Shown piece after piece: positions 16,201 to 41,518 of a stretch of DNA of 64,000 nucleotides. The notes beneath the pieces were generated by a model. The model was given only the letters and a program-made list of their open reading frames with translations. It did not search any database and had not been told where the DNA came from. Every line of letters starts with the position of its first letter. Within the stretch, counting starts at the first letter, position 1. A program made the translations under genes and the position numbers. Source of the stretch: Raillietiella orientalis (lineage: Eukaryota). The stretch spans positions 6,014,001 through 6,078,000 of the forward strand of contig JAYWIR010000005.1 of NCBI GenBank assembly GCA_036172245.1, in the 5' to 3' direction.

Positions 16201-17199
16201 ACAATCATCGACACTGCATTGTGAAATCCCATGGTAAGCAGGGAATATACATCAGGGATTTTAGAGGAATTTGTAAACAGAAAAAAGAAAGGAAGAATCA
16301 CCGACACGACTACGACAACAAATGAGAAGGGCGTGATTTCTCTCTATCCGAGTCATGCAGCGACTCCACAGTTCGAGAATACTTGAGGTCCACTTGCACT
16401 GACGAACTTCCGCAAACGGGAAGCGAACAAAGCTGCGCCGAGATGCTGACATTTCTGGACCAACAAATAGAGAATCGTCTCAGAGCGCAGGGAATACAAC
16501 AGCTTGCAACGGGGAAGCGGGCGGCGAGTTAAAAAAAAAAAAAAAAAAAAAGAAAAAAAATTCTTCCCATCTTGGATATCAGTGAGTAAACATGACTAGT
16601 CAGACTGTTCCAATTCCCCCCTTCTGTAGGGCTAAAAGCGGAATGGGGAACGAGAAAAAAAAAAAAAATACAAGCTCGCTGGTGGCGCAAAATTTGCGGA
16701 GGATCGAACAAAGCGCACAGAGAACTGGATGCAAAAGATCGAATCCAACCCGCCTCATACGTCGCCGTCTATCTGCGAAGAAATACCCGGCTACATGGCA
16801 AGGAAATTCTTCAAGGGAAAACACCACGAAGGAAGGAACGTTCAAACAGATCGACTGTTTTGACTGTCTGGTAACTTGACTGAGGCTTTCGGCTGCTGCA
16901 GTGGGATGAAAAACATCAAAGCAAAAGAGTGAAATTCCAAAAGTAACATTATGTGAATCTTCCCCCCGTATCTCCCCCCCCCCCCCTCTATCTCTCTCTC
17001 CTTTTCGAAGCTTTGATTCGATAAGGAAAGAAGAAAAAAAAAACTTCCGAAAACGATTCCAAACTTTTGCATTTCGTAAACCCAAGCAGCCCGACATCCG
17101 TATTGATCCAGGAAGAAAGACGCTCCATGACGCATGAGGACAGCACATGGGAGAAGTACCGAACCCTCGGCAGAAGAAAAAGAACAAAGAAAAGAAAGA

Positions 17200-17540
17200 A
17201 ATCAGCATTCGGTTCTTTCAGCATCCAAAGCACGTGGACACTTCCCGTACTGAATGAACGGGAAGTCTCCACACGCTTTGGATCGTTCTGTGGAATGGCC
17301 TCGTTTGAAAGCAAGAACTTTTTCGTTTCCTCAAAGCTTCCTTCCTGGTTCTTTTCCGAGAACGAGAATTCTGCTACCGTTACTGTGGAAACGATCACCA
17401 ACGGAATCATCCTGTTTCGGATGCGTCCCGCATCCGATTGCCCTGCTCGAAGGAAATCACTGGGCGCCATGCGCTTATGGCGCATTCTTAAGAACTGGTG
17501 GGTGTGGACTCATCACGCGCTTTCACGGAAAAGTACCACC
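17200..17540 (-). mobile_element. Decayed LINE RT thumb-region remnant
   Basis: LRAGQSDAGRIRNRMIPLVIVS...KKFLL resembles the L1/Tx1 LSxAGRxxL...IPxY...FLW region. Confidence 0.3.
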
Positions 17541-17989
17541 TAATCCCCGTGGGGCTTTCGAGCCACCCCTCTTCAGTCACTGCGCGAACGTCCTGCGGGT
17601 TCCCATAAACGCTCCCTGCGCGCAGTGGAGCATTTGATTTTCTTTGGAGGCGATTCGGGCGTAAGCTTACCTTCACAGGACGTGTGCCAGCCCGGAGAGG
17701 AATTTCCCAGCACGCCACACACACTCGAGCTCACGTGGAAACTCTCCAGACTTTCACTAGAGGAACACTGCCGACGTGCACCGCGCATGCGCAGACGCCG
17801 GTGTCGTGAGAAGAACCCGATAGAAAAAAAAAAAAAACTTTGATGCAGACGGCGCTAATAATATACGAAGAGGACGCAAATCGTTCGACCCAGAGCGTCC
17901 CACCTTAGATTTTAGAGGAACTGCATTTCTGAGATGCAGAGCTTGCAAACCTATCACCATGAATCTACGGAGGCGTGTAACTGCATCTG

Positions 17990-18350
17990 CACTGTTAAGC
18001 GAGGAAGCTGACGGAATTCCGGGCCCTGAGAAAGCATAAGGGCCTCAAATCCCCCCCCAGTTGGATGGCATTTTGTTAGCACTTTATCGTTCGTGCCCAT
18101 TCAGATGATGTCCCTTGATCGTTTTAGGAAAACGATATGAGCGAGAGCACCTGTCTGCTCACAGCACATAATGCTCCGTAATCCAACCCAGCTTGGCTCA
18201 TGAGGGACTCTCTCTTCTCCGTCGCGCAGGGTGTGAGTCTGATGTCTGCCAACAGTTGCTAGATAAAACAGTGAGATGAACAGCTAGATGGCAATTCGAA
18301 AAGTTAAGTTGTTGGAAAACATTTGTCCATCCCCGAGCTCTCTACAGCAT
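17990..18350 (+). mobile_element. Decayed LINE RT N-terminal remnant
   Basis: ALRKHKGLKSP(fs)QLDGILLALYR resembles AL....KSPGxDGxxxEFY. Confidence 0.4.
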
Positions 18351-19799
18351 GCGGCTATCAACTTAGAAAGAATAGAGTTTAGGCTTTTAGTTGTACATCA
18401 GTAGAGGAGAAAGGTATAAAAACAAGAATCCAGGGAAAAGGAAGATAAGCAAGGAGCTCTCTCACAGCCGTACAAACGACAGCAGTGGAGGAAAAGTCTC
18501 TGCGCACTACCGGGTAAACCATCTACGAAGAACGCTAGCGGCGGTGATCCAAAACACGCACTGAATCGGCAACTCACTGTTGAAGTGTCACTGAAGCCCA
18601 GAGGAGATTTTAAACATTCCGGGGATTCGGATGTTTGTTTGTTTTTAAATGCAGCGAACGGATTTTCGGAAAAACATCGGAAAACTCCAAAGACCTGAGC
18701 TCTTGCTGACAGTCACCAGTCTCCGCGTTGACTCTCAAATAGATTTTTTTTTTTTTTCCCCTCCCTCGAACACACCTTCTCGGCAGATGTGATGTGGATG
18801 TGGAGACCGCCCTGAATTTGGCAGTCCCAAAGCTGGTTGGCAACTCTACCCGACACGGCACGTTTCTTGTCCGGTGGATTCTTTTCCGAACGAAGAGGGA
18901 AACACGGGAAGAGTCCAACCCGTCTGCAATACTCGCGGCTCTTCCTGTCTTTCGGTAAGCAATCTGCAGAGCAGTCGCTGTCACAGGTTTTCTTAGAAAC
19001 ATCAGATAAAAGAGATCTAAATGGATAAACAAAGATAGATGCGTGATGCAAATATTTATTTAGCCATTTGTTTGCTTTTGCTTCCACGTTTTCCTGCTCC
19101 CTTAGCTCGTCATTGGGCATCATACTTTTGGAGTTCCGATGATTGCTGCACGATTTGTATTTCCATGATGCACGCGTAATCCACGCTGCATCTAATCAAC
19201 GCCTCTCCCGCGTGGATTCCCGTTCTCGACCTGTGGCAGCATGCAAAAAGTTTTGTGAAACTCTGGGATCTCGGACAAAAGGCTGTGCCCACGATGGCGA
19301 CATCTAGTTAGGAATCAAGGAGTTTTCTTTAAACCCTTTCTTGGGGTTCTCTCCAGTAGACATTTTAACCAAGGAAATGGGAAATCGCATTAGGGGCCTT
19401 GACACTTTCGTCTGGCATGAGGATGAGGAACTGAACGCACATCCTAAACTGCTGGTCATTTATGTTTTCTTCGAGACATCCTGAATACCTGAGGCTGCTT
19501 AGCTTTACCGGGAGGCTACCAAATGTCATGGGAGTTCGGTTGAAGATTACTCATGGCTTTCACACCCGATACGGGATAATGACGCACTTCTATCTTATTT
19601 GGTCAACCATAAAGCAGACTTCCGACACAGTTGGACAGGAGCCGGGAAAACTAAGCCATTTGAGGAGGAAAAAAAAAACGGCTTTGTGAGCTTGGTAGAC
19701 GCCGCTCGGCTGCGGAGACATCTAGTGCAGTATAACTGCACTAAAAGAGACAAAGTCCGGATTCTTCACCGAAAGGGCTGCTGATCTGTAGAGCATCAT

Positions 19800-21560
19800 A
19801 TGGAATAGGCAGAGAAATAGGAAACATTGGTCAGCATTTCTGGTGGACATGCCATGAAGCAGTGCACGTGAATGTCACTGTAGTTGTTTGCGCATGACAC
19901 CAATCATGCGCGTGAAACTGCATACCTAGTAGATGATTACCCGATAATCGGGGGGGGGGGGACTTCTCAGACCCAGAGGTCACACATGAAATGTGCATTT
20001 TTTTTGTTCCTTCATTTGTCTGTCTTCTATGAGACTCACTCTCGCAGCGTTTGAAGGCTACCAACGAAATTGACTGGAACTCTGGATGAGAGAAAGAACG
20101 AGAAGTGGACGCACAGTAAGCATGGAGCTCATTTGTCCCCAATTCCTCCCTACAAAGGCATCTGTTTTGCCGACAGGTAATCTGTTTTCTTCAGTGTTTT
20201 TCCGCCTGCAAGATACTGGTCAAAGTTCGAGATCCAAGAGCAGGCGCTGACCGAGGAGACGAGAAACCTCCAACATGCGGTGCAAAGGGCGAGAGATGCC
20301 CAGAAAAGGAAACTCCTCATCTAAGCACTACGTGTTGAAGATCTCAAAAGTCTCTAGAAAGCAGAAGACTTCGGCATCTGAGGGAACGAAATCTTCTTTG
20401 ATACTACAGCACATCACTACTGCATCCAACAGGTCTTGGCTTTCTTCAGAAAGGGCTAGTTGCCAAGAAGTGGAGCATAACTCTTCAGGGAGGGATGCCA
20501 ATGATGATGGGTTTGAGCCTAGGAAAGACTCGCTCGAGCGGCCCAAGAGTCATCAAATTAGAGGTACCTTCTACTTTGTGGCTGTTGATGTCGCCGTTAA
20601 CGATGGCGTCTCACTGCTGCATCTCCTTCCAACTCCCTGACGGGCAGGAGCGAACCTGCTTTGCCGAGGGAATCCTGATGCATCACAGACACCTCAGTCA
20701 AAGGAGATGAGTGCAAGAAGTGCCTTCATCCAAGGCAGAAATAGAGTGATTCAGGCCAGGAAAGTAATCTGACCAAAACTTGCAGGATGCTGTCCCGTGT
20801 GAAGCAGCCCCTAGAATGAGTGCTCTAATGGTGAAAGGCACGTTAACAGAAAAGCGTCATTCCTGCCTGAGGCAAGATGACCCGGATGTAGGCTCAACGG
20901 AGAAGCTTTTGGGACTTCATCGGGATGCTGAGTCTTCCCCAAATTTGCAGGGAGCGATCAAGAAGTTCACCGGTTCTTTCGCAAGAACCTCGGCTCTGAC
21001 TCTGTCGGGAGATCTGATTGGCAGGCGGCGGCAACGATCCTACGCACTCTCCGATCTCTATCCAGGGATGCTCGATTGAGAAGCATTCGCTCCGGTACTG
21101 CCCCCCGGGTTTGTGTGGAGCCTCCTCGCGTGATCTTCCGCTGTTGCCGATCAACGCCAGTGCGCGTTTGCCAGGCAGAAGATTGGATGACCCTGGTAGC
21201 CCCGACACGACAGAAGAGAGGAGCTCGGCTCTTAGTGTAGCTTCCAAGAGCGGAGGCGGAGAGCGTTTCCAGGTCTGCATGCCGTCACCATAGGGAAGGT
21301 CGCTTCCGTGGTCATTTCCAGCTCGCGCGCTGATCGTGCGCCGTTCGTCGGAAAACGAAAAAAGGGAAAGCCTGAGGGCTTCTTGGTTACAACGGGTGGT
21401 TTTCTAGCCCATTCGCGCTGCTCCTTTATCTTCATGGGTGTAAGCAGGGTACGGAGGTTTATTTGGTGGACGTCTGTCCACAATGAACCCGGGGTAGGAA
21501 TGGTTTCTGAACTGACAAAGGCGGAAATCGAGTTCGTAAGTGTCCGAGGAAAACCTGACA
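19800..21560 (-). mobile_element. Decayed LINE ORF2 fragments
   Basis: Linker-like LALSEESQDLLDAVV. Segment 21389-21510 is an inverted homolog of 23026-23147. Confidence 0.35.
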
Positions 21561-23250
21561 TTCAACTCTCTTCGCAACCACCGATTCACCACCAAAGGCA
21601 CGAGAACAAACAGAAGCAGCGTCCCCATGGAGGAAGGGGACTCCACTGGACTTCCAGTTGACTCACGAAATGCGGCGTTACTGAATTCCTTTGGAGGGTT
21701 TCCCTCCTTTCGTTCTAGCTTCCGCTCCCGAAAGCTCCCGTGAAAGTGCCGTGGTTCAGCATCGCAGCAGTCAAGTGTAGTGGTCAGGAGGCGCGCTTCC
21801 GAAGAGTGAAGCATCCCAGCCTTCGACTGAGGCAAACAGAAACTGATTCGGCACTATTCGGGACTCTCCCTTCCAGTTCCCTTGCATTCTGGATGATGTG
21901 ATTGGCTCTCATGACGGGGAGGCAGTTAAAGTGCTGCACTCTGTGTCCCGGGTCGCGTCTGCATCATCTGTCCCGGGATGCTCCCAGTCTTCCTCGAAGG
22001 ATGGTCCAGCTGCTAGCAGATACACCGCGTTGCGACAGGTGCCCCCTTTGACCACCGCGACAACCTTCAAGAGGCTCGGGCGGCAGCGTCTCGGAGCAGC
22101 GACGACGACCCGGCAAAGTCCGCCCGGAGCTGCTTGCACTCCTGCTGGCGTTCTTACCGGCACCGCCCACAGTGCGACGTGCTCTGGCGTGACATGCCCG
22201 GGATCAACGACTCCTTCCCGCAGACGGCGCTGCTCACGACTGGGCTTCCGGTATCCTCCGAACTTCGAAAGGATCAGCAGCCGTCGGCATCAGCACCAGC
22301 ATCCTCAGCGGCTGTACGAGCACCAGCAGGAGCAGGACCAGCGACACGGCCAAGATCGGGACTCTCAGTGGCAGAAGGAGCATCTGCAGGGCCGGCGATG
22401 AGAACCTCACAGGCTGCCGTGCCGCCAGTGGGGCCACCAGCATCGGAAGCATCGCCTCTGGAGCCAAGAACATCAGAGGTGGTACTATCAACAGGGTCAG
22501 CAGGAACAGAGTTGACAGAAGTATCGGCCATTCTGCGCCGCGTTCGTGACTGGTCTCTGCTCCAAGAGATCCCATGAAGGAGGCAGCTGGATTCCCTTCT
22601 GCCTCCACCTACATCAGGAGTGTTTTTCTCAACTTTCTACCACTTCGGGAAGGGAGCGGCAGCCGGGAAGCGAAGGTCACAGCCGGCAGCAGTAGGGAGG
22701 TTGACTCTGTCCAGGGAAAGCACACGTGTGTTACAAGAGAACGGAAAATTCTAGCACTCTTGCCGCACGAAAGAGCGTCACGAATGGTGGCGAATTGCAG
22801 TCACCACCCCTCCCTACCAAGAAAAAGGAATTCCCGTATTGCGACCAGATCCGCTTCACCCGGGAAGACAAGGCCGACTCTCCGCACGAGGACGCAGGCG
22901 TGGAGGCGTGTCCGCTGGGAGTGTCCTGAGCTCGCCTGAGGCTGCTCAGCACTTGACGACAGGACTGAAAGGCACGCGTGCAGATTTCCACTGCACGCAT
23001 CAGCGGTGCCCAGACCCTTCCCGTTCTGAATCCACCCCTACCCCGGGGTCATTATGGAATCGCGCCCATCAAGGAAACCTCCGTACCCTGCTCACACCCA
23101 CGAAGATAAGAGGAACAGCGCAGATGGGCTGGAAGAACACTCGTTGCATCTCACGCCAAACGCTGCAGCAGAGCTGCAGCTCGCGAAACTTTGACGCCCT
23201 GGCAGCGGCTTCTTACGGCACCAGAGGGACGCCAAATGCTCTCTTAGGGG

Positions 23251-25123
23251 GAGAGTCGAAGAACTGAGCCTGCGTTGGTGGCCACGTGGCACCAAGAGTT
23301 ACGGGTTCGAACCCCCAGGTGGAGGATCGACGCTGAGAAATGAGTGGGTCGTAAGTTTCGAGTTCCCCCCGCAAGATGACGCCAGTTGGCATATGCGGGT
23401 GCGGCACTAGAGGAAGTTGAAGATGCCCCCGTGGACTGAGCGGGACTGATCCTACGGGGTCCTTTTAGGAATCTAGGAGCCCTTTGGAGTTCCCCCCCGG
23501 TTGTGAAAATGTAACCTCCCTTCATTGCGTTCCACGGAGCTGGTTGATATCCCTTCAGGGAACTGTGGGGGTGCGTCTACAGAGTGTTACAGCAGTGCGC
23601 TGCTCCCTTCGGGGATTTTCCTTTAGAGAAATTTGGAAGCGTCCCCTCGAGGTTCTCTTCAGAGGAGGAAACGAGGAACAGATTTTTTCTGGGGGGGGCC
23701 TCCGGAGAAGAAATGAGGAACGCCCCCCTCAAGGAGACCCTTCCAGAGAGAATGAGGAAGGGATGCTCTTTGGGGTTTCCTCTCAAAGCGCAGGAGAAAC
23801 GGATTACCTTCTCCAGAACCTTCCTGGATTCAAAGGTTGGGCCTACGGGGTTACCCCCTACAACTTGAAGAACTACACTTCTCCCTCGGTTGGTGCGGAC
23901 AGTGCTGAAGAGCTTCGCAAGTCACCTCTGAGGAGGCAACCCGGGATTCGAAACGGGAAGGCGGGTACACTCGGTGCTGCCGGACCACCCCGGGATCAGG
24001 ACGTGATTTTCCTCCTCCGGAAGAGTGCTCACGATTCTTCTGTCCTGGCACGCCCGACTTGGTGGCTCACCCAGGCGAACTCCCTCGTTCAGGTCCACCA
24101 TGGCAGCGCTACGAGAAGAATTTCCCGAGGACATCCGTCGTGGAAAGGGATGTGTGGGCGGAAGGGGTCAAGTCGACAGTCAGACCCGACAACGCTGATG
24201 GTCCATCATCAGAGCCTCACTGCATAAGATCTCCTTCGGTGCACCGTCGGCTGCAGGGGACCAGCATCCCTCGTCTCCCCGAGACCACAGCAGGTTAAAG
24301 ACCGGGAGTCCCCTTGAAAAACTCGTAAGCTGAGGAGCGGATGGACCATGGGGCAGCTGGCGGATTCTGCGAGTCCAAGTGCCCTTCCATGAGGACTCAG
24401 CACTGGAGCGAGCTGCTCGGTATTCCATAGAAATACCTGGAGTGGCCCCCAGAGCTCAAGAACAGCAGCGCCGTCTCCCTGAAGTGGCAGGAGTCATCAT
24501 TTCTGCTGTTGCACTGGGGTCTTCCCTGCAAAGCGCACCGATACCACTGGACGCTGGGGAGAGCGAGCCCGGAATGTCGCATGTGAGGGAAACGGGAATC
24601 TCTCCCGCACCTGCTTGTGGGCTGATGCCCTCCGGCCCCTATGAGAACGTTTCAAAACCACCTCCGGATCCCGGTTGGCACCCCCAGGGACGTTTTAGGG
24701 CTCCCTCTCATGCGAAAAGCTCTACAGCCAGCCGCAGCCCCAGCAGCGCTTTCCTGCATCCGCTGGATCGTGGCGGTCTGCAGAGAAGCCGACGGAAGAA
24801 GAAACGGGAGGGACGCTGTCCGGTTCACAGTTCACTTTCTGCGGATGGAGGCCAAATGACCCCACCTGGGACCTGTTCGGACGGACCTAAGATGCAGACT
24901 TCCTCCAGCGGATAGTGGTCCCTTCCCGACCTTCCCAGAGATTTTTATTCACTCTTTCTTGTTTTCTTCCATCCCTTTCCGCTACCGAGGGGAGCCCTGC
25001 CGGTCTGTGTACCGGCAACCCGGCAGGTCCGTGGACAAATGGAGTGTGGTAGAACCACGTGTCCGACCACAATTTGTGAGTTTCTTTTAAATTTTAAGAA
25101 TTTCCCCGGTGTCCGGATGGAAA
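23251..25123 (+). mobile_element. Internally deleted non-LTR element: tRNA-like head, ORF1-like region and LINE 3' end
   Basis: B-box GGTTCGAACCC at 23304-23314, with head homology to 63613-63790. 24410-24900 is homologous to 30640-31130 (LLHWGLPC motif). Terminal CCGG-TGT-CCGG hairpin at ~25104-25117. Confidence 0.55.
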
Positions 25124-26149
25124 TCGAAAAACTCGGCCTCTCTCCCGAGGGAGTCCCCACGGACAATCTACCGGACGCTGGACTGCAGCGCGTGGAGAGG
25201 GGATGCTGCGATAGGATGCTCAGGTATGGCTTAGAACCGCGCCTCCACCACGTCCAACGTCTTGGAACGGTGCCCCTGCTGGAGGCACAGCTGGATCCAA
25301 AGTGTCCACGCGCCGCAAACACCGTAACCAAAGAGCCGCCTCCCTATGGGCGAGCAACGAAGGTAGCCAACCAGCCAGGTGGGAGGCGTCTTGCCACTTA
25401 GCAGGAGTCAGCGAACCCACGACCAGCTGGAGGGTCCGGTAACTTTCAGCCTCCTCAGGCACTCGGCGTTCGCTCCCAGGGACCGCGCCGATGGACAGAC
25501 AGTCTGGACATCCCCCCTGGACGAACTGGCGGACTCCGCCCGCCTCCCCAGGACAGTTCGATGCCTCCTCTCCGGTGGCAGCAGGAGGCAGGAATCGTCC
25601 TGCACTATGGTTTCCCGTGCAACCAGCGCCGGCGCCTTAGAGCCCACGACCACGACAGGAAAAAAATGAGTTGAAAAAGCGTGCGGCTGCTCTCTCTGGG
25701 AGCGGCAGTTCTCCGTCGCTACAGGGATGCAGACAGGCTATGACGTCATCAGCTGAACGGACCGCACCTCCCACGGGGAGAACGAACCCATCGGCCAAAT
25801 GGGAACACGCATATTTATTGAAAAAATTCGTAATGTGTATTAACATACATTACTAAAGATTATAAAAAATCGGTACAATAATGTACATTTATGTATATAA
25901 TAAATATATATTGAAAGAATACACGAATATCTAGAAACATACGTACCTGTCCATGGATCAAAATCCCGAAAACAGAATTCGCCGTTTCCTGGGAAAGGCG
26001 TTTTCGATTGTTGAAAATGGCGGAAGCATCAAATACAAAAGGAACTCCCTCTTTGCTCCCCTAAATTATTTGGCTTCTTTGTTTTTTTCCGCTGTTTTAA
26101 TTGCCACCATTGTTTTTTATTTCTTCATGATCCCATATTTATAAATTCA

Positions 26150-26502
26150 TTTAATAGATATTTACCATATATATAAATTATGTAATAAACACATATGTTT
26201 ATTTTTATAACCTTTAATAAACATAGTGTTAATTATGTCAATAACATGCAAGTCAATGAATTTCAATCAATGTATATGTTAAAATAGTATTAATATTAAC
26301 ATCTATGTTCACAAATAGTAGTAAATACATATGTTAAAATACATTTGTATATATATGTATACAATAAGCACATGTATTTATTTTATTGTATGTATATACA
26401 TATACACACAATAGTAAATACATATGTTGAAATACATTTGTGTATATATATAGATATATATGTGTGTATGTATATATGTGTACATATATACGTGTATACA
26501 CA
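26150..26502. repeat. AT-rich TA/TACA minisatellite-like tract
   Basis: Imperfect repeats such as tagtaaatacatatgtt(a/g)aaatacatttgt at ~26318 and ~26413, plus (TA/TG)n runs. A related unit recurs at ~27145-27217. Confidence 0.7.
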
Positions 26503-26596
26503 AATGACTGTTTTTCCTCTTACTAGTTGGCTTTTGTTTTTTTTATCAATAATTTCTTTTAACCTACTCAATACGATCTCGCATAGTGCCCGGGTC

Positions 26597-26695
26597 GATC
26601 TTGAAATTACCTTAGAAGACGCATTTAAGGGAATACAAACGCCTATACATTACGTCACAAATGTAAAATGTGACACGTGTCGAGGTACAGGCAGT
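26597..26695 (+). pseudogene. dnaJ: Bacterial dnaJ fragment (Wolbachia-like), 33 codons
   Basis: Translates to [33 protein letters not shown], the segment before and including the first CxxCxGxG zinc-finger repeat. As recalled, this is near-identical to Wolbachia DnaJ. No further dnaJ sequence on either side. Confidence 0.88.
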
Positions 26696-26848
26696 CGTAA
26701 CTGCCTTTTTTCCTTGAATTCCTGCTCAAATTCTACAACCCTGTTATCTGCTGACAAGAACCAGCCTCCTTATTAAAAGTACAGAGATTGCCACTGTGGA
26801 CCCCACCTACTCTAGTACAAGTGCTTTCGCTCGTTTTCATTTTTACCT

Positions 26849-26915
26849 TATGCTATTGGTGTAGCAAAAGCTTGTACAACAAGAGTGGTCAATGGTCCAT
26901 TCCCTAGAGCTAAAA
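26849..26915 (+). pseudogene. purA: Bacterial adenylosuccinate synthetase fragment
   Basis: Translates to YAIGVAKACTTRVVNGPFP, then (after a 2-nt loss) E-L-K. This matches the PurA signature G(I/V)xKAYTTRVGxGPFPTE with two substitutions. Confidence 0.8.
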
Positions 26916-26979
26916 TACTATTACATGTTGACAATAAAGTTAAGTGAGCTTGATCAAGAAGGATGACAAAGATTACCAT

Positions 26980-27057
26980 AGGATTCATTGCATGCAAAGT
27001 TTTTACCGTATCCTTCAAATTTTCTCCTTTATTAACAGAAGGAGGTTTTATCGGCAG
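26980..27057 (-). pseudogene. pyrB: Bacterial aspartate carbamoyltransferase fragment
   Basis: The minus strand translates to LPIKPPSVNKGENLKDTVKTLHAMNP, matching the alphaproteobacterial PyrB motif SSxxKGExLxDTxxTLxAMxP. Confidence 0.75.
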
Positions 27058-27727
27058 GGGGTAGAACTTCAGTCATTCGAGTGGAATTATAATGAGGCGG
27101 AAAATTATATTACTACAGCTTTAAGGTTTGACTTTCAATATTTTAACATATTTATTTACTATTGTATGTATACATATATACACACACATACAATAACCAC
27201 ATGTATTTATTTTTTATGATCTCTCGTGATTTTGATGGACACCGGTACGCCTGCTGCCATTGCCTTCACCTTCCCTGAAATCTCACGGTCACAAGTGTTC
27301 CCTTGATCTCTCATCCAAAGCCCTCTCGCAAGTCACCATTTTTCTGCATTAATGTTGAGACCAGTTGGTATGACTGTGTATTCCTCCCCCCCACATCCCT
27401 GACGCTCATCCGTGTTAGCGTAGGAAGAATTTTCGTCCTTTTCTCGTGCGAGAGATCGGTCGCCTTAGCAAATCGCTATCATTCTGCTCTCCACCGCCGC
27501 TACCCCCCTATCCCTGTATCGTGCTTCCCCGGACAGTCTTCCGGGCTCTCCTTGTGTCCTCGAGAGTCTCCTATCCAGTGCTCCTCCTACCTCGTTCAAA
27601 AGACACGGCATTCCGTGCGGACAGGCGAGCGAGCGAAATTCCTCCTGCCCTGCCGCCGTTCCCTCGAACTGCCCTGCTTCCACGCGGGTGTTGGTGGGAA
27701 GCTGGCCCTCGACTGCGATGAAGAGAG

Positions 27728-28670
27728 CAACCCGGTTACACCGGGGCGTTTTTTTTTATAAAAACTAAACTAGTTGGAAACATGCCGGTTCCCAACCGAA
27801 TACAATAGAAGTTCAAGGGGAGGGTCCACCGACACGCAGGATGGGAAAACAGAAAGTCTGGAACGGGGGAGAGGATCGGGGGACAACAACTGCAACAAAA
27901 ACACGGCGGATTGGGCAGGGATCTTTGGGTTCGCTCCGTGTGCATGAAGATAAAACAAAAACACCAGGGAAGTAACGGAGCGAACGTAATGGGGAATGAG
28001 AAAAAATAATAATGAAGGGGGTGCAAGGGACAAGGGTCACCGGAGTCCGCCGTTCGTAACTCTCCTCAAGCCGCCGCTGGATGTCGGCGATCTCCTCCTT
28101 CACTTCTTGTTCCAGGTGAGGCCACTTTGCTGCCGCCCTCATGTAGGCGGCTGCAATCCTGGTACCTCCCTTCGTTGCGTGGTCGTCTCGAGAACATGGC
28201 GAGCCGTGACGATGGTACGGCTCTAACCCATGGCTGCGACCACCGGCGTCCGTCAAGAATCCTCAAGGCGCGAAGAACCGTTGCAGCACATCTCGGGCGG
28301 TGTTCTTCTGGTGCAGGAACTCTACATCTAGCCTCCACCACAGTCACTGAAAGGCACTGCAGCCCAAAAGCAGATGAGGCGGGAGCGACTCCGCCGGCTC
28401 GCGCCTGGCACGCTGGCGCGCTGAGGTGGGGAGTTTTGTCGGGGAGTCCATCTTCTCAGCTCGATTCCGCAGTCTCTCGTCTGGCATCAGGGGTGTTCGC
28501 CAGTGCCAAGTCCCACATAATGCGGGACCAAAGGTGTCCTCTGGTTTTGGGGTACACACATCCGTGCTCTGTCGTTCAAAGACTCCCTAGACGGTGCGTC
28601 CAGGGAATGTCTCGTCTTTGCATCAGGAGCGAAGAAACCGTTGGGCCAGTGGAAGGCGGACCGGTTGGCT
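27728..28670 (-). mobile_element. 5'-truncated L1/Tx1-like LINE copy
   Basis: ORF2 C-terminus MRAAAKWPHLEQEVKEEIADIQRRL, homologous to 36100-36250. T-rich 3'UTR and terminal hairpin CCCGG-N5-CCGGG at 27731-27745. Confidence 0.6.
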
Positions 28671-28723
28671 GACGCGACCCGACACCCAGCACACGCGCTG
28701 AAGGCAGCTAGCTGCTAGTTTGG

Positions 28724-29345
28724 GTTTATCACCTGGTCACGCCGGGGTGTTTATTATAAAAAATAAACATACACATGTAGGGCCATCGGCCCTACATCAT
28801 CCGAAAATGTTCGGAACCTGCCGAGTAGGCGGCACGTAGGCTGTCGGGGGTCGCCTCGGCAGCGGAGGGGAGGGCAAACAAAAAGAAAAATATATACGAA
28901 AAAAATTGGGAGGGATCACCGTCCGTTGGAGGGCGACTTCTACATCCTCTCCAGGATGCCGGCAAGTTCCACCTGTGTGTGTCCCAGGTGGGGACATCTT
29001 GCTTCCGTCTAAAGGAGGTGCAGGGCAAAGCAGAGGGCGTCCTTATCGTACCGTCCTCTTCTTGCGTGGCTCCATGCCTCCATAATCCCACGTAGGCTAC
29101 ACTTTGATCTCGGCCAAAATGCCGCGCTCAGAGACGAAGATCATGAAGATCCCAAGTAGGCAGCAAAGAGCTGCTGGGGATGCGGCAGGCGAGAGAGCGT
29201 CGCGCACGAAGAGTCGCTTGGTCACGTCCCTGAGATTGTCCGTTGGTTCACCAAGGGCCGTTGCATGAAGCAACCACAGGGGCCGGAGAACAATACAGTC
29301 CACAGGCAGGCATGGGAGGGATTCCCGTTCTCCGCACCACCATCG
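28724..29345 (-). mobile_element. 5'-truncated L1/Tx1-like LINE copy
   Basis: ESLPCLPVDCIVLRPLW...KRLFVRDALSPAAS is homologous to 30830-30990. Ends in AATAAACACCCCGG-CGTGA-CCAGGTGATAAA. Confidence 0.65.
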
Positions 29346-29349
29346 TTCT

Positions 29350-31556
29350 TTTCCCAAGGGAACCCGGAAAGGAGTGGGCCAGCTCATGAACTCTGCGACT
29401 TCAAGTGCCCCACCGAAGGGACTATTGCGCTGGGGTGAGCTGCTGTTGGGAATCCTACAGGAAGACCTAGAGTGGCCCCCAACGCTGAGGGACAGTCGTG
29501 CCCTCCCCCTGAAGTGAGAGGAGTTGGCACTTCTGCTGTTGCACTGGGGTCTCCCTTGCAATGCTCGCCACTCCCACTGGATCCGCCCTCCCACCCCTGT
29601 GGCAACGTTTCGGAACGACCTCTGGGTCCTGTTTGGCACCCTCAGGAGGTTTTACGGCTCCTCTTTGTGGGGGATGTCCTCTTTGTGGACGGTCAGACTG
29701 GATCCGCTTGGGGATCCCCACAGGCGGGTACATCAAGTACCTTGGAGTTCCGTCATGATCACAATTAGAACACCTCGAAGCCAGATAAGTATGGGACCGT
29801 TGGGGGACTTCTGCATAACAGAAGGTTTGTCCGGCCACCTTCAAAAAGTAGAAATGGAGCTCGCCCCGTTCCAGGACAGCATGGTCTACTTGCTGGAACG
29901 GGTCGTCGTGTGAAATGCATTCGCAACCCCCCTCCTCCGCCCCTTGCTTTTTGTTTGCCCGTCCGAGCAGCTATTCGCAAAAGGACCAAAGACCTCCTCA
30001 GAAAAGCTCTGTGGGGCAAAGGGAGGTTCAGAGTCCGTTTAAAAGACCTCTGTGCTCCGCGTAGGGATGGTGGACTGGGCCTCCTCACGCTGGAGCGGAT
30101 GGAGCGACAGCTCCCATTCCGTAAACTCGTTCTTGCGTCGAAGCTCTGAACTACACCTTGGTGCGCTCAGGCAAGAATTTTCGCCAAACAGGCAACCGGT
30201 TGCAAAGGAGTGACCTCGATCGTCGTGGCCACCGAGTGGAGTCTGGGCCATCTCGGTCCACAGCCCCGACACATGGTTGCCTTTGTGCAGAAGAACCCCT
30301 GGATCTCCGTCCTCCACGCCAACTGGACGGCCTGGCTGCAGGAGTCCCATTTTCTCATGGGGAAAAATCAACGACACGGGCGCGGCAGAGTACATCTGCC
30401 TATGGAACAGCAGATACTCTCTCCAGCCGCTGAAGGAGAAACTGGGGAACACAAGGAATCTGTTGTGGACCTCATTCACCCCCCTCGCCCCAGTGCTGCC
30501 CTCCCTAAGGCTGACAGCCAACTGCCAGCGAGGTGGTAAGTGACCTGCGTGATAGGGAGCAGGAAAAAACATCTGGGTGCGTAGACAATTCGGGAGCTGG
30601 CGGATGCTGCGACCCCGAGTGTCCCACTAAACGGACTGTCACGCTCGGGAGATCTACTACAAATTCCTCCGGAGGAGGTACAGAGGTCCCCAGCGTTCTG
30701 GAACAGTGCAACCCTCCCCTAAAGTGGCAGGAGTCGGCGATCCTGCTCTTGCATTGGGGCCTCCCGTGCAATGCCCGCCGAACCATTGGACCCGAGGGAG
30801 GGCGAGCCCCAACTGCAGCAGGTGTGGCAAAAGAGAGTTCCTCCTGAACCTGCTCGTGGATTGTGTTGCCCTCCGCCTCCTGTGGGAACGCTTCGCCGCG
30901 ACCCTTGGAACCCCCAGCAGCAACCCCAGAAACGTTTTGAAGCGCCTCTTCCTGCGCGACTCCCTCACGCCGGCCGCGTCCCTAGCAGCACCGTGCTGCC
31001 CATGTGGCGGGACCATGGGTGCATGGAACTACGCCGGAGGAGGCCACGACGACAGGGACGCCATCTATTTTGCTGTTCTCTCCATGAGGATAGCGTCAAG
31101 ATGGCCCCATCTGGGAGTCTTGAAATAGAAACCTGCCGGCATCCTTACAAGGATGCAGAGGACAACCTCCAGCACACAGTGATTCCTCTCTGAATCCAAT
31201 CCCTATTTTTTTTTTTTTTTAAGACCAGTAGCGACCCCACGAGGAGATCGTTACTATTGGCCTATGGATGATGGAAATCCTTTTGGGTTCTTCTCTGTCT
31301 TCGCTGTTTTTCCCTTTCCAGCTTTTTTTTTTCTTTTTTTTTTCCCCCATTTTTTGACTGTATGTTTTTTGTGTTATTTTTTTCTTTTTGTTTGTCTTCC
31401 CTCCCCCTGTGCTGCCGTGGAGAACCTCGCCGGCCTGCGCACCGGCTCTCGGCTGGTTCTTGCTGTACATTTTGTAACGTGACAGGAGCATGCATCCTGC
31501 CGCTGAGGTCTAAATTTTTTTTTTAATACATAAACGCCCCGAGGTGTCCGGGTATT
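29350..31556 (+). mobile_element. L1/Tx1-like LINE ORF2 3' half (two adjacent or nested copies)
   Basis: IKYLGVP; LWGKGRFRVRLKDLCAPRRDGGLGL (RT thumb); LLHWGLPCNAR; CSRCGKREFLLNLLVDC (zf-RVT); MRIASRWPHL; T-rich 3'UTR and terminal hairpin at 31538-31552. Confidence 0.8.
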
Positions 31557-31599
31557 AATCCGACTCGGTGCCACGTCAGAAGTCTGAGAACTGGTCTGC

Positions 31600-33550
31600 G
31601 CATGACGTTCACGCCATCGTGCGCCACTCTTCAGTTCGCAACAGGAACGTCCGGAGGAGCAGCAAGGCAGCTCTTCGGAAAACGAAGAGGAGATCCCAAT
31701 CCTCCAGCTCCCAGGAGCTCAGGAGGTTCAGGCAGGACTATTTCTGGTCCAAACTCCCTGGAGAGCAGATGCTCGTCAGAGAGGAAGCAGTTTCCGGACT
31801 CTCTCCTCCCGGCAGGGAGTCGATGCTTCGGAGTTTTCTCCCGGTTTCCTGGGTCCTCAGGGACCGGATGCGCAAGGAGACAGTGGGTTGCTAAGCGGTT
31901 GACTGAAAAACGCCGGCATCTTCTGGGTTCTCGCTCTGCGAGTTGCACAGAAGCTGGCGGTGAGATGACCGTCCGCTCTGCCACCATGAAGGTCCGGAGG
32001 TGGCGGCTCCTGGGGCCTTGTGCGATGGAGCCAACCAGATTCTTCGAGTCCACTCCTTTATCCTGCTCTTCCCTATCATTATCGACATCACCACCATCAT
32101 CATCCCTTCCCCTCCTGAAGCAGATCTTCAAGGAGTCTGTACGTACCAAGGGAGAGCTCCATCCGCCCTCTTTGCCCATCTGCTTGCTTAGCTCCGGAGC
32201 CCTTCTCCAGTTTCAGATCGCCGCAAGGAGGGTGATGGGCAGGGGTGTTCCTTCGTCCTTCCATCTGGGACTTGCTTAACCTTCTACAGGGAGGTGAGTG
32301 GAAAAGCTGGAAGAGGTGGACAGGACAGGCAGACGGCGGGTCTTTCAGTCCGGTGGGGCTCGGTCCCTCATCCCTTGGCGCGCGCAAAGTACCTGATACT
32401 GAGGAGGAGAAACTCAGGCAGACTCGGAGGCAACATGACCTTCCTGCGGAGGGTCGTCAGCGCGCGCTCTCATTCTGCAAACAGCTGCCGGAGCGCTCCC
32501 AGGACGTGGCGGTCACTCTCGTAAGCTCCGCCTCCAAAAGGCGAGCTAAGGTGGCGCGCGAAACATAGGGGGCGATCGCTGGCGTTTGTGCACGCCGCGA
32601 GATCGCCGCACGACATGGCGCGCCACCGGCGAGCGGTTCGTCGCGATGCCACACCTGCCCTCTGTGACGCGCACTAAATTACGAGTAGCAGCAACCACAA
32701 TCTACTAATCAATCAATCCGACGGGTTTAGCAATAGAGGGTGCGGAACATCAGGCGGCGTGCCTTTTGCGGACGTCGGCTTCTTTCACTCCAGGTGATGC
32801 AGCAGGACTCTCTTCCGGAGGAATTGTGAGCTCCGAAGTGTTCTTGATGTTGGCGACCGCTGGTTCCGGGGACTGTCTCGGATCCTTCCGAAACACGCAA
32901 AGTTTGGCCTTTGGTCTCCGGAGCCCGTTTCAGTCCTTGGGAGGAGAGGAACCAGGATTCGTTGCAGAGGGTGGTGCTAGTGAAGAAAAGGGAGGAAGAC
33001 GTGAATTTTTCAAAAGAAGGGTGGCTGAGGAGAGGGAAGATGACAGGAAAATCAGCTGGTTCGTCGCCGAGACTCAAGGCAGAGGGAATGGCGGCGATAA
33101 CAGACCGGGAGGGAGTGCTTTGAGCAGAGAGAGAGAGAGAGATGAAGAAGGAAGGTGGAGGATGCTGCCATGGTGGAGTGCCACGAGAATGCTGGTGCCT
33201 GGTATGACGCCAGTATGATGCTCTGTTTTTTTAAGAAACTTGTTGTCCCTGTGATTCGGGAAAATGGGAGGAACAGGGTTGCATTCGAGTATGCTTTTCT
33301 AGGGAAGCTTGGGGACGAGTTGTCACTCGGAGGGGAACTGCGGGTTCAAAGGGGTTGGAAGAGAAAGAAGAAAAGGGTGCAGGATTAGAGAATTGTCTTC
33401 AGAATCATACAAACAAAGACCCCCTGAGGTGCAACTTGTATATCAGCTGGCCTGGAGAATGGAATCGGCAGCTGCTGAGCGTTTGTTGTACGTAAATGGC
33501 GAAGGAAAGCATTACAATCGTAGCTTTGGCATGGAGAAAACATGATGATG
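31600..33550 (+). mobile_element. Decayed LINE endonuclease and linker remnant
   Basis: RNVRR...SQEL resembles NVRG...LQE. MEPTRFFE...IIIDIT resembles YAP...FF...ILGDFN. Linker-like EEKGGRREFFKR. Confidence 0.4.
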
Positions 33551-34870
33551 CTCCTGCCATTTCAGAGAGCGTATCACCACGAACGGATAGGCTATTTTAA
33601 TCACAAACCATCAGCATGTGCTTAATATTGTGGTCATATTATTCATATGAAGGTGTCTTGGGTGGTTCGCCACTGTATCCACGGGCTCAGGGAATCTCAT
33701 TCGTCTGTGTCTTGGCTTCGTTATATCTCTCTCAACTAACAAGCAACTTAAAACATGGAGGAGCTTGATGCAATTGAGGACGAACTAAGTCAAATTCAAG
33801 GTGATCCAAAATATGGACTCGGTTTTCGATTCCTCTTAACCTGCTTCTGTAGGGGGCCCAAAAGGACGTGATCCCGTCTGCACAAGTTTCGGTGGTTGCA
33901 ACAGGCTGAAGGTAATTTCTCTGAATTCGTTCCAAGTGGAGGCACGAAGACTGGCATATCGTTCGGTTTATCTTCCCGGGAGAGGATTCGGAAAAGGAAA
34001 CGCATGAAGCAGAATCTGCTCCAGATCGTACTGCCTTTAATCTGCACAGCGTTGAACAATCTAATTCCCTGCTGAAGAGTGTTCCCTCGTATGTTGGGCA
34101 GGCGGGTGAGTCTTTCACCCGATAAAGCTTCCCGAGTTCAGTCAAACCTAGGGGAGGGGGGGGGGGGGGGGACAGATGAATCTTTTCAATTGATGCATGG
34201 AACTAAAGGGGAACTCTGCGTCCAATGCAGAATCTTCCTCCGTCCTCATAAAGTCTTCGGAAACACAGCTTCGTGGAACGACCGGCGTCCTCTTCGAAAA
34301 GTGGACTCCGCTTTCGCTCAGGGCTGTCTGATCCGGGGCGAAAGCAGGTTTCCGAGAAAGATTTCGCTTCGACCTTCCCCGACCTAGGCTGGCACTTCTG
34401 GGCACTCCTGAGGGAGAAGAACATCACTTCCACCATCGATTTTCGAACTCTCTCGCCTCCGTTTACCGCTACACTAAGCCAGCCACCCTTCATCTGGACA
34501 TTTGCTCATCTTTGAGAGACAGACCGATGTCTAGGGGTGGCTTCGGTGAATTCTATAGCGGACGCGCATGTCAGAAGCAGTAGGTGACCTCCACTCACAC
34601 TGCAACGAGGGAATTTTTTCTTCGTGGAGTCTGGAGAGCTCCGCTCATCAAGTAGGATCGATAGGTCCTTTGCAGAAGCAAAGAGATGGAGTGCGAAGAC
34701 TATTCAAAGGCGGGCTACAGTTTCTCTTCCACTGCGCTAATGAAGGAGTAACAGGGGGACTCGAGTGCTGCCCCATAAAACGTTTCCGTAGGCTGTGCGT
34801 CAGGCTTTGTTTTGGAGGAAGAAAAACGTGTTATACGCAAGGTGCCACTGCAGTAAGTAACTCCTCACAA
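33550..34870 (-). mobile_element. Decayed LINE 3' portion
   Basis: SPACPTYEGTLFSRELDCSTL (zf-RVT-like) and CPDEGWL (a PxxEGGLG-like remnant). Confidence 0.4.
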
Positions 34871-34929
34871 TGAACCGCCTCCACTGTTTTTTATTTTATC
34901 TAATTTTTTTCACATTTACCGGCCTATCG

Positions 34930-35090
34930 ATGCTCCGTTCACCTCAGCATTAAAGCTTTCACACTAAAGACCACGACTACCAATCTTTAATAATTCTTGT
35001 GGACGCTTCTATGTTTTCCTGCGTTCTATACCTTCGTGGTATTCATAAATCAAAGCATACCTGGTTTTCTCTTCCAAACATATAATGATA
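34930..35090 (-). mobile_element. Possible Ty3/gypsy integrase zinc-binding (HHCC) remnant
   Basis: RYALIYEYHEG and, after a frameshift, AGKHRSVHKNY*RL resemble LIxEYH...GGHRGxxKTYxRL. Confidence 0.3.
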
Positions 35091-35319
35091 AATGGCATGT
35101 CAGATACCAGGATTATTTCGAAAGGCATTCCACCAAACAATAATTAATCAAATCTATTCATGCAATAGGATTCGTGCTGACGTCTATTTTCAATCAATCA
35201 GTTGAGATATTGCTTTAATCTCATACATGGAAGCCAACTGCCATAAAAGGACACTCAAGAGTACTTCTATCCATTTTTGTATTAATCCTTAATTTAATTT
35301 ACTAATATTTCGATGTCGT

Positions 35320-35990
35320 GCCTCCCGCACGAATTCGTGGACGAAGAACTCTTTGGAGCCTGTGTGGTTCTTTCCTTGCCTCCATCCTGTCACCAAGGAG
35401 TGGACTTCCACTTTCTTTCCCAGGATCAGATGGAAGTGCAAGCATCACCCTGGGGACAGTCTCTCTCGGAAAAACTAGCGCAGCTCTCCCGGCGAGCATT
35501 CCTGCCAAGAACAGCAGCGGTGGCAGTAGGGAAGCGCAGGACTTCTCGGGGACAACCAAAGACGTCTTAAGCTTTCTGCTGGTAGTGAACCGAGGACCGT
35601 TGAGAGATGCCATGTGGATTTCTTTCCGCCCAACGAACAGGAACGCGATGGAGACAGGAAGCAGTCCATGCCTACGATCTTCTTGGAAGAGTCCCACAGC
35701 GAAAGCTACCGATCTACTTGGTCAAGGCCTCTCCTTTGTCACCGATCTCGTCGACGACACGCGTCCGCCTCCTTCAGCATTGCTTCTTCTCCTTCAAGTA
35801 CGGAAAACAGAAGATTTTCTCCTGCGACAGATTTCGGGAGATCAAGAAACTCACTGGCCAAAGCGGAATGGTGCACACGGAGGATGAAACCCGACTCCAG
35901 AAAACTGTCTTTCACTCTCGCAGATGGGGAATCTTCCTCACTTCCGAGAGCGATGGGGCAGGGATCTTTGGTGTCGCCCCTTCTGGAGAA
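35320..35990 (+). mobile_element. Decayed LINE reverse transcriptase domains
   Basis: Motifs in the expected order: FPGSDG (KSPGPDG), SFRPTN (WRPISL), DLVDD...ALLLL...KTED (RDLI...LDxxKAFD), MGQGSLVSPLL (VRQGxPLSPLL). Confidence 0.6.
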
Positions 35991-35999
35991 AAAGAAAAC

Positions 36000-37540
36000 C
36001 GAGAAAGTTCCGGAGAGATGGAAGGAGACAATAAAAAAAACAGAAATAAGCAAAAGGGGAGGGGGAACAGGGGACACTGGTCCCGGCCGTTCCTTCCTCC
36101 TAGAACGGGCACTGGATGCCGGCGATCTCCGTCTTGATCCCCTCTCCCAGGTGGGGCCACCTTGCAGCCGCCCTCATGTTGGCGGCTGCCATGCAGGCAG
36201 CCTCCCTTCCCTGCGCTCGCGTCCGCAAGACACGGAGGGCCGTGACGATGGCGCGGACGCAACATCTCGTCGCGACCGCGACCACTGCGCCGGTCGAGAG
36301 TCGAAGAACCGCCGCGGAGGTCACGGGCGGTGTCCTTCTGCGGCAGGAGCGCTGATGCCAGCCTCCGCCGCGGCTCTTGGAGGACGCTGCAGTCCAAAGG
36401 CAGGTGCGGAGGGATCGACACCTTGTGGAGCCGAACGGGGATACGGTAACACAGGGAACGAACGAGGTGGCGACGCTGATCGCACCGGAGTCCCCAGTGC
36501 AGGAACAGTGGTACCTCCCGTTCCCACGTCGTAGGGAGCGCGGAAGTGTTCGCGCACTGGGGAAGGACCTCAAGGGGGGCGGAAGTTCACGCCACCGCAG
36601 GAATCTGTCCGCCTGGATGCGCGGAGCGGCGGCATCCTCCAACTCGCGCGTCTTCCAGCTGCCCAGGAGTTTCGTTTTCCTTGCAACGGTCCAGGAAACG
36701 GAGACTGGAGGCCGGGAGCCTCCGGCCCCTGGCATCTTCCCGACGGCATGCGCCACCTTTAAAAGAGGTCGGCAGTGGCGCCGTGCCCTTGCGCGAAAGA
36801 GAGAGAACGCCGCCGGCGAGGGTTCAGGGGTTGGACGGTGTGTCTCGCCCCAGAAAATGCGTCTCTGGTATGTTCGATCTTCACACTGTGCTCTGGTGGC
36901 TATTCTTTTCATTTCAGTTCGATGACACATGGTAGGACTGTCTTTCGGCGAACACCATTTCACGCGTCATAGAACTTTCAGGAGAATGGATGTCCCCCAT
37001 GAGGAACTCTTGGTTTCCCCCTTCTTCCCTGGACAGCTGCGCGCTGCCCATCCACATGCAACGGACGCTTCTGCTATTCATGCATTGGAAAGTCCCATGC
37101 AACAAAGAACGCCAAAGGGGCTGGCCGCATTCTGAAAGTTTCCCTGGACTGTGCGGGGTGAGCGCCGGAAGAAACCATCCCGCACCTCCTCTTGAACTGC
37201 AGCACTCTTCGTGTGGGTTGAGAACGCGTCCCACTTCCAGAAAATAGCTCAAAGAACTTGTGTAGGGCTTCTTCCTCCAAGGTGGACTTTCTCCAGCCGC
37301 AGCGGTCGCGACCTTGTGGCGCATGCACTCGTCTTGCGATGGAGTCCCACTAACGGCGGCGAAGGATGGCCATCCTCCCAATCAGCTCCATGCCAGGGGG
37401 AGCAGCAAGACAGCCTCACGTGACTCCAGAAACAAAGGTGGACACCTTGTCTGGACTGATGGAAAGAAGGTTGGATCCCGGTGACTCTTCTCCTTTCCGC
37501 ATCCCCTCCCATCACTCTCGAACCCTCTCCCAGGACTGAC
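36000..37540 (-). mobile_element. L1/Tx1-like LINE 3' portion
   Basis: MRAAARWPHLGEGIKTEIAGIQ, homologous to the 28066-28250 copy, followed by a T-rich tail on the minus strand. Confidence 0.55.
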
Positions 37541-40500: not shown

Positions 40501-41418
40501 TGCCTTCGTGTACCTACTGACGTCTTCACTTTATCAAAACCACCTGCCATTGGTGCAGCCCACTTCATTTCCTACTTTCCTAAGTCCTTGAGCATGAAGT
40601 ACTGCCTAGTTCTGTCTCGAAATTCCAAAGAGCAGCGCTGAGCCCTTGAAGCCCCAACTGTCTTGCATTGAGATGACTACTACATTCACCACCTTACAAA
40701 TCCTCTTCGTGACGACCCAGAATTCCCTGGGATGATTACGGGAAGAATAATCGCATTGTCCTTCCCGTTGATCTGATTTCCTTCCTTAATACTGGCCTGG
40801 CTTTAGGCAGAGGTAAGAAAATTAAATGGAGAGCACGCCATCTCTAATTATCAGAGGAACAATTATCAATTACTCACATTGTCTATAAGGTTACTGGAGT
40901 AAAGAAATGCATCTAGAACTGAAAAAGATCTGAACCAAAACTCCTGTAAGATTACTCACCTTTCAATATTAAGAGTGTATTGTGTTTATCTTCATAACTT
41001 TCCATCCAACTTTGGCTTTGAACTATCAACAGTCAGTTCTAATAGGGACAAGGAAAAGCTACAGAAGCACTTATAAATTATTTATGAGGTGACTCTTAAT
41101 TATGAACATATGCAGGCATTAAGACAAACACAAGGGTTATCTCAATGGAATGTAAAAAAATAGTTAAGGAAGCAGTAACTGGTAGCAAAGTTCTGACAAG
41201 TAACAAGGAGATGAATGATTTCTCTGATGAAGAAAAAGTGACTGCCAAATAAAAATTACTGCTCATTTCCGAGATCATGGAACATTAAAAGTGCATTTTT
41301 CCGATAAATCTGTTTTCAAGTTCGAGATCAAATTACCCGTTTCTTAGAAGGGCACTTCATTGGAAATACTGAGTGCATATGAAAACTCAACTTCTTGCCC
41401 ATTCTAACCATTCTAACT

Positions 41419-41455: not shown

Positions 41456-41518
41456 TGTATATTCAAATAGCAAGTTAAGAATATAGCACTTTCATCTTCA
41501 GGTACATGCTAATCTGTA

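Follow-up and report, generated by a model that had tools for sequence, protein, structure and literature searches.

Nuclear transfers of Wolbachia DNA (NUWTs) are common in host genomes and can be short. Supergroup C transfers in Onchocerca have a mean length of 434 bp in one study (PMC12693587), and other accounts describe Wolbachia fragments as short as specific detection allows (PMC4046930) and, in a mite genome, parts of Wolbachia genes confirmed by polymerase chain reaction (PMC5467014). The NUWT pipelines of two of these studies accept matches of >100 nt (PMC4046930) or of E<=1e-30 (PMC12693587), thresholds under which shards of the size described here would mostly be missed. Organelle insertions (numts, nupts and numins) can unite non-contiguous donor fragments at one site by non-homologous end joining (PMC6215612), and the fragments of such mosaics must meet before or during integration. 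Here we describe, in a 64,000-nt stretch of Raillietiella orientalis contig JAYWIR010000005.1 (the window, to which all coordinates refer), a 632-bp mosaic insert at 26507-27138 (site 1) composed of seven or more shards of Wolbachia genes, each 63-111 nt long. A further mosaic lies at 12068-12204 (site 2). We consider it probable, at roughly three chances in four, that the feature is a finely fragmented nuclear Wolbachia transfer that arose by end-joining capture of degraded symbiont DNA.

Each shard of the insert is of Wolbachia origin. Region 26450-27200 was matched by all 60 species-representative Wolbachia genomes at E<=1e-4 (blastn) and by all five genomes of an earlier set, and the segment limits were identical across the Wolbachia references used. 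At the DNA level, seven segments show 83-96% identity to Wolbachia genomes, and together they cover 548 of the 632 inserted bases; pieces of 3, 3, 14 and 64 nt make up the remainder. The shards run in the order murB (minus strand), dnaJ (plus), rne (minus), a large unnamed protein (minus), purA (plus), pyrB (minus) and a 488-amino-acid (aa) unnamed protein (plus). Gene names are those of the reference open reading frames (ORFs) underlying each match, scored against NCBIfam and Pfam. Over both sites, the nine shards have a mean length of 76 nt (standard deviation 17). The components of site 1 are as follows.

26507-26509: filler (ACT) at the left host junction, matching neither the palindrome described below nor murB.
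26510-26581, minus strand: shard 1, internal fragment of murB (UDP-N-acetylmuramate dehydrogenase; reference ORF PRK13905 murB, NCBIfam); 86-94% identical to Wolbachia loci (94% over 53 nt, 89% over 72 nt; E down to 2e-20).
26582-26584: filler (CAT) between shards 1 and 2.
26585-26695, plus strand: shard 2, from the interior of dnaJ, with the frame shifted by a deletion of 13 nt after 26597; best match 94% over 98 nt (E 6e-37).
26695-26757, minus strand: shard 3, fragment from the N-terminal part of rne (RNase E/G family; reference ORF TIGR00757 RNaseEG); best match 94% over 63 nt (E 8e-21).
26758-26771: 14-nt filler between shards 3 and 4, with no match.
26772-26849, minus strand: shard 4, fragment of a large Wolbachia protein that matches no family in NCBIfam or Pfam; identity of 83% over 78 nt to genome G006 (E 8e-17) and 89% over 36 nt to genome G001, with a peptide colinear with the reference ORF.
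26847-26915, plus strand: shard 5, internal fragment of purA (adenylosuccinate synthase; reference ORF PRK01117 purA) with a 2-nt deletion after 26906; 86-94% identity (best E about 2e-15).
26916-26979, no strand: 64-nt piece with no source assigned, of a length that fits the shard class.
26980-27059, minus strand: shard 6, internal fragment of pyrB (aspartate carbamoyltransferase; reference ORF PRK00856 pyrB); best match 90% over 78 nt (E 2e-23).
27057-27139, plus strand: shard 7, fragment of a Wolbachia protein of 488 aa, likewise without a family in NCBIfam or Pfam; best match 96% over 82 nt (E 2e-32).

A sequence-only reading of this DNA had reported three of these fragments, namely a DnaJ peptide (26597-26695, plus strand), PurA (about 26849-26905, plus strand) and PyrB (26980-27057, minus strand), within limits (26503-27140) that nearly coincide with those we obtain. 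All three are present as claimed, and their identities and Wolbachia affinity are borne out by the DNA matches listed above for dnaJ, purA and pyrB. The count of three was too low, and both the palindromic target site and the second mosaic were missed. The 60-150-nt AT-rich spacers that it described do exist and are not mere spacers; they consist mostly of further shards (murB, rne, the large protein and the 488-aa protein). The blastn comparison that it proposed returned matches in 60/60 Wolbachia genomes, and in the complete references examined these lie at distant loci in mixed orientation.

The DnaJ peptide had also been called nearly identical to Wolbachia, and indeed it agrees with the Wolbachia consensus at 32/35 positions, with two of the three differences also present in individual Wolbachia sequences. 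Of 15 candidate proteins, 14 matched its 45-aa read-through at E<=0.001; nine of these carried names, and all nine are Wolbachia DnaJ. Allowing for the deletion, the 13 nt upstream in this shard agree with dnaJ at 12 positions. Pfam gave only sub-threshold matches to the short peptides (Adenylsucc_synt, E 0.006; OTCace_N, E 0.034), and a Pfam scan of the DnaJ peptide gave no match. The pieces match Wolbachia and are not host, mitochondrial or other organelle paralogs, as expected of a NUWT.

The 64-nt piece found no comparable source. Its sole match was 36 nt at 83% in one of the 60 Wolbachia genomes (E 1.9e-4), where no frame of >=40 aa was found in the reference stretch beneath the match. 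None of 301 Rickettsiales genomes matched it, a motif scan of metagenome contigs came back empty, and a search of a phage collection gave no match within the piece. The phage search returned, for the insert as a whole, one weak 50-nt match (E 1e-3) to an unannotated gut phage, which we treat as chance. An exact-pattern scan of metagenome contigs for the dnaJ/rne junction found none. On the plus strand, a stop-free frame of 158 codons (26300-26776) spans AT-rich host repeat, antisense murB, sense dnaJ and antisense rne; this frame is accidental and does not represent a chimeric gene.

The donor loci are scattered and in mixed orientation. In the complete genome G014, six shards could be mapped, to about 209 kb (minus), 474 kb (minus), 318 kb (plus), 1247 kb (plus), 810 kb (plus) and 1048 kb (minus), and in G033 the six that could be mapped lie at 364, 1277, 1305, 1448, 104 and 30 kb, again with mixed orientation. 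The nearest pair in any reference, dnaJ and purA, is 8.2 kb apart (genome G001). Spacing thus ranges from 8 kb to >1 Mb, and order and orientation are scrambled in every complete reference examined, so the pieces do not derive from one contiguous bacterial locus. Since every shard comes from the interior of its gene, a functional bacterial genome could not have them side by side. At each of the two sites, fragments from separate places in the donor genome have come together at one position: seven shards at site 1 and two at site 2.

These positions bear on a second explanation, in which one large contiguous Wolbachia insertion was reduced in place by deletions and inversions. Large nuclear Wolbachia transfers that break up over time are well documented (PMC12693587, PMC4046930). 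To arrive at the present insert from loci 8 kb to >1 Mb apart, with order and orientation scrambled, such erosion would take at least six very large and precise deletions plus inversions, leaving pieces of about 75 nt that abut with overlaps of 0-3 nt, and it would sit badly with a host palindrome that is restored exactly when the insert is removed. We regard this origin as very improbable.

The anatomy of the junctions speaks to how the shards were joined. Alignments were extended beyond each shard end to set the junction limits, and at four junctions the neighbors meet with an overlap of 0-3 nt: shards 2 and 3 have 0-1 nt in common, shards 4 and 5 up to 3 nt (CTT), shards 6 and 7 up to 3 nt (GGG), and shard 7 and the host 1 nt (T). 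Site 1 has no target-site duplication. The junctions thus display overlaps of 0-3 nt or fillers of 3-14 nt, without long homology, and this pattern is as expected of end joining. A mosaic built by joining many small shards had been proposed from the letters alone, and the direct or briefly filled junctions agree with that proposal of end-joining capture.

A replicative process could give a similar product. In microhomology-mediated break-induced replication (MMBIR), fork stalling and template switching (FoSTeS) or synthesis-dependent end joining by polymerase theta, a broken host end would prime on Wolbachia DNA in the nucleus, hop among such templates and copy 50-110 nt from each, with no ligation of pre-cut pieces. 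The overlaps of 1-3 nt at the four junctions, the short, untemplated-looking fillers at others and the narrow range of shard sizes would all suit such template switching. However, the overlaps are no longer than values that occasionally occur by chance, and the 3-14-nt fillers and the 64-nt piece are equally compatible with ligation. Moreover, templated inserts made by polymerase theta are usually shorter and copied from nearby sequence. Template switching therefore seems to us an unlikely account of the insert, and we continue to favor capture of pre-cut pieces by end joining.

The host sequence on either side of site 1 forms two arms of a palindrome, the second of which is split by the insert.

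26387-26460: left arm, about 74 nt of AT-rich host sequence within a local repeat of about 93 nt (from analysis of inverted and direct repeats).
26481-26506: proximal 26 nt of the right arm, ending at the left host/insert junction.
27139-27186: distal 48 nt of the right arm, picking up exactly after 26506.

The distal part belongs to a 48-nt inverted repeat, at 88% complementarity, with copies on both sides of the mosaic. When 26507-27138 was removed in silico, the 26 nt and the 48 nt joined into an uninterrupted inverted copy of 26387-26460, with no host base lost or duplicated. In the reconstructed pre-insertion locus, two arms of about 74 nt each flank a 20-nt spacer and form an AT-rich palindrome. 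Folded as single-stranded DNA, the restored 184 nt form a hairpin with a free energy (dG) of -45.9 kcal/mol, compared with -11.8 +/- 2.5 for 200 mononucleotide shuffles (z = -13). Because removal of the insert restores a seamless palindrome, the break fell within a host repeat able to form a hairpin, at a point 26 nt into its right arm. Palindromic AT-rich repeats, among them the human PATRRs, are hotspots of breakage, and the palindrome may itself have caused the break; its symmetry is a plain property of the DNA.

GC content is extremely patchy across the window: the AT-rich palindromic tract (26100-26506 and 27139-27215) stands at about 18-20%, and blocks such as 2001-3000, 36001-37000 and 63001-64000 reach 60-67%. 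The AT-rich flank also matched contig C125 (4351 bp) of the Wolbachia assembly G046, a low-complexity similarity confined to TA/TG microsatellite sequence; this contig may have entered the assembly as contaminating host DNA.

An inverted repeat of 48 nt on either side of the mosaic also brings to mind capture by a host transposable element (a foldback, MITE or Pack-type element), for which the repeat would provide the termini. Yet the right repeat is continuous with the 26 nt that precede the insert, which places the insert inside a hairpin arm and not between termini. The expected target-site duplication is absent, as are further copies, since neither the insert nor the repeat occurs a second time in the 64-kb window. 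Capture by a transposable element is hardly credible on these grounds.

A scan for further shards covered the whole window with five Wolbachia genomes, and 12300-26450 and 27200-47199 with 60 genomes, with five candidates scored per genome; shards that are very short or strongly diverged may have escaped it. It found one further site, 14 kb from site 1, where two shards lie in an intron of a pyruvate kinase gene.

12068-12146, plus strand: site 2 shard A, carB (carbamoyl-phosphate synthase large subunit; reference ORF PRK05294 carB) with two 1-nt indels; 78-88% identity, matched by 46/60 genomes at E<=0.001 (best E 4e-20).
12158-12204, plus strand: site 2 shard B, group II intron reverse transcriptase/maturase (reference ORF TIGR04416 group_II_RT_mat), antisense to the ORF; multi-copy in Wolbachia, with 94% identity to six copies in G013 and 87% to seven in G007.
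12055-12232, minus strand: the pyruvate kinase intron that contains both shards, 178 nt, GT-AG (GTAAGT...TTTCAG on the minus strand).
10698-12640, minus strand: the pyruvate kinase gene, apparently intact, with very short GT-AG introns.
1710-3667, minus strand: a GC-rich pyruvate kinase paralog, 8 kb from this AT-richer copy and about 45-55% identical to insect pyruvate kinase (tblastn).

The gap between shards A and B is 11 nt, and DNA of Wolbachia derivation makes up about 70% of the intron. The intron splits pyruvate kinase residues 121 (12235-12233) and 122 (12054-12052) and leaves the coding sequence intact (tblastn), and all exons of the gene read open. Only 13 nt of non-Wolbachia sequence are left before the 3' splice site, so any branch point would have to lie within DNA of bacterial derivation. 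At the same codon boundary, the GC-rich paralog is interrupted by an intron of about 80 nt. Thus the site 2 intron is ancestral and Wolbachia DNA was inserted into it; the idea that the filler created a new intron was rejected for the same reason. The empty state of site 2 is presumed from the paralogous intron and from the colinear pyruvate kinase protein. As an independent event in a spliceosomal intron, site 2 is strong evidence, at the level of sequence, that such shards lie in host nuclear DNA.

At 178 nt, this intron is exceptional in a gene whose introns are otherwise very short; the neighboring one (12457-12507) has 51 nt, and a further short intron apparently lies more 3' in the gene. 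The two pyruvate kinase copies differ strongly in base composition and have at least one intron position in common.

The reverse transcriptase shard suggested another candidate process, template-switching reverse transcription of bacterial RNAs. It is disfavored by the mixture of strands, given that dnaJ, purA, the 488-aa protein and carB are sense to the plus strand of the window, and murB, rne, the large protein, pyrB and the reverse transcriptase are antisense.

The bacterial genes in the insert are disabled and bear no mark of bacterial constraint. All shards are internal fragments, and two carry frameshifting deletions (13 nt in dnaJ and 2 nt in purA, the latter being the indel that the sequence-only reading had noticed). 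For substitutions, we compared each shard with all distinct references (8-33 per shard; shard 4, with one reference, was left out). Bases found only in the window occupy 13 of the 457 compared sites, and with a donor that could be unsampled, this value of about 2.8% is an upper bound on post-insertion divergence. They fall at codon positions 1, 2 and 3 in the ratio 6/4/3 and are not concentrated at third positions; 11 of the 13 stand in columns that are invariant among the references. Several changes alter conserved residues, for example G replaced by V in the GNGPFP motif of PurA and S by P twice in PyrB. Ten substitutions run from AT to GC and one from GC to AT (binomial p = 0.045 given 63% AT). 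The two deletions together with the substitution pattern indicate neutral decay in the host, as the earlier reading had suggested, and the pattern fits relaxed constraint in a GC-richer host, unlike fresh bacterial DNA. The insert at site 1 shows no sign of function and would be a repair scar that is decaying neutrally.

The surroundings of both sites are eukaryotic, with intron-bearing pyruvate kinase genes and a 233-aa frame (54017-54718, plus strand) that resembles krasavietz/BZW (eIF5-mimic protein). The pyruvate kinase of the AT-richer copy is 70-75% identical to many insect and crustacean proteins. For the krasavietz/BZW-like frame, the best match, from an ostracod, is only 51% identical, a sign that public protein data hold few relatives of this host. 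From these matches the host can be placed only as an arthropod of a poorly sampled lineage. In the assembled sequence the bacterial DNA is continuous with host DNA, the palindrome lying on both sides of site 1 and site 2 lying inside a GT-AG intron. A search of sequencing runs found no RNA run containing words of the window.

An artefact of library or assembly would explain the mosaics as chimeric molecules, formed for example during low-input amplification of a Wolbachia-infected animal, and the sole public run found contains a small share of the window words. Seven shards of 63-111 nt in 632 bp are not the usual form of amplification chimeras. The insert also sits seamlessly in a restorable palindrome and the site 2 mosaic neatly within a GT-AG intron, and frameshifts and non-synonymous window-only changes at invariant columns would be unexpected in fresh bacterial DNA. 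We hold an artefact to be quite improbable and return to the nuclear transfer as the favored reading.

Several points weigh against that reading. At site 1, 84 of the 632 nt are without an assigned source, the 64-nt piece included. Two overlaps of 3 nt among about nine junctions are mildly above the expectation for blunt joining; at the same time, the overlaps are so short and few that ligation of pre-cut pieces is not distinguishable from replicative template switching. To judge from sequence alone, the two routes would look alike, and their end product and its meaning would be the same. The bias from AT to GC is marginal at its p value of 0.045. Across the shards, even the best references reach an identity of only about 91%, so the window-only changes may in part be attributable to an unsampled donor lineage. 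The only public DNA run that was found contains a fraction of 0.14 of the sampled window words. Continuity with the host is read from the assembled sequence, which a chimeric assembly could in principle have produced. Finally, the presumed empty state of site 1 takes the internal symmetry of the palindrome as its one basis.

With these points allowed for, a sequence of events can be proposed for the capture. Wolbachia would have lysed in a germline cell, and its DNA would have been degraded to pieces of about 50-110 nt. Pieces from unrelated parts of the chromosome would then have been linked to one another, with their order and orientation random, and the concatemer ligated into a host double-strand break by end joining, either non-homologous or assisted by microhomology. 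At site 1 the break would have fallen inside one arm of the AT-rich, hairpin-forming palindromic repeat, without loss of host bases, and at site 2 in a short intron of the pyruvate kinase gene. We infer that the DNA was fragmented before it was joined, that the pathway was one of end joining and that the events took place in the germline.

Symbiont-to-host transfer is usually catalogued as sizeable blocks. Here, tiny scraps were concatenated as the patch for a chromosome break, in the manner of organelle DNA. If such inserts are common, published counts of Wolbachia transfers are underestimates, with shards of this kind falling below the usual detection thresholds. Scars of this type would document past infection in hosts that are now without Wolbachia and would mark sites of germline breakage, in this case a hairpin-forming AT-rich palindrome and an intron. 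They would also record how host cells degrade symbiont DNA.

A broader proposal, which we offer tentatively and find rather doubtful, is that the nucleus in this poorly sampled arthropod lineage holds a standing pool of endosymbiont debris of about 50-110 nt that is used routinely as filler for germline breaks, so that the genome would be peppered with micro-mosaics, the introns of working genes included. If this were true, two independent events per 64 kb would extrapolate to thousands genome-wide, standard NUWT screens would be blind to micro-mosaics, and the narrow range of shard sizes would report on the degradation of bacterial DNA by the host cell.

In searches of the full-text literature (supplements were outside their scope), we did not find many shards of 50-110 nt from across the chromosome in one small insert described for Wolbachia, nor did term searches find that architecture in PMC3849323 and PMC12693587. 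The locus can nonetheless be set beside several known systems.

It resembles human PATRRs in having a long, AT-rich, near-perfect inverted repeat, capable of forming a hairpin or cruciform, as the site of breakage. Unlike in PATRRs, the break lies 26 nt into one arm and not at the center, the outcome is an insertion of filler and not a translocation, and a causal role of the repeat is our own suggestion. In yeast, short fragments of mitochondrial DNA were reportedly captured at chromosomal double-strand breaks, in work from 1999 by Ricchetti et al. and by Yu and Gabriel. There, as here, short extranuclear pieces, sometimes several of them, patch a break with little or no homology; the yeast events were experimental and involved organelle DNA, whereas the present one would be a natural germline event that involves DNA of a symbiont. 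Mosaic organelle insertions likewise bring non-contiguous fragments together at one nuclear site with the hallmarks of end joining, but the donor in our case is a bacterial endosymbiont, and for an insert of this length the number of fragments is unusually high and their size unusually small.

In common with the NUWTs of arthropods and nematodes, the insert is Wolbachia DNA in a host chromosome, non-functional and decaying neutrally. In contrast to them, the inserted unit is no single fragment, and at least seven pieces of 63-111 nt, drawn from loci all over the bacterial chromosome, make up a concatemer. By its sequence, the feature would belong to the NUWT class in origin and context, and in form it would come closest to the mosaic insertions of organelle DNA.

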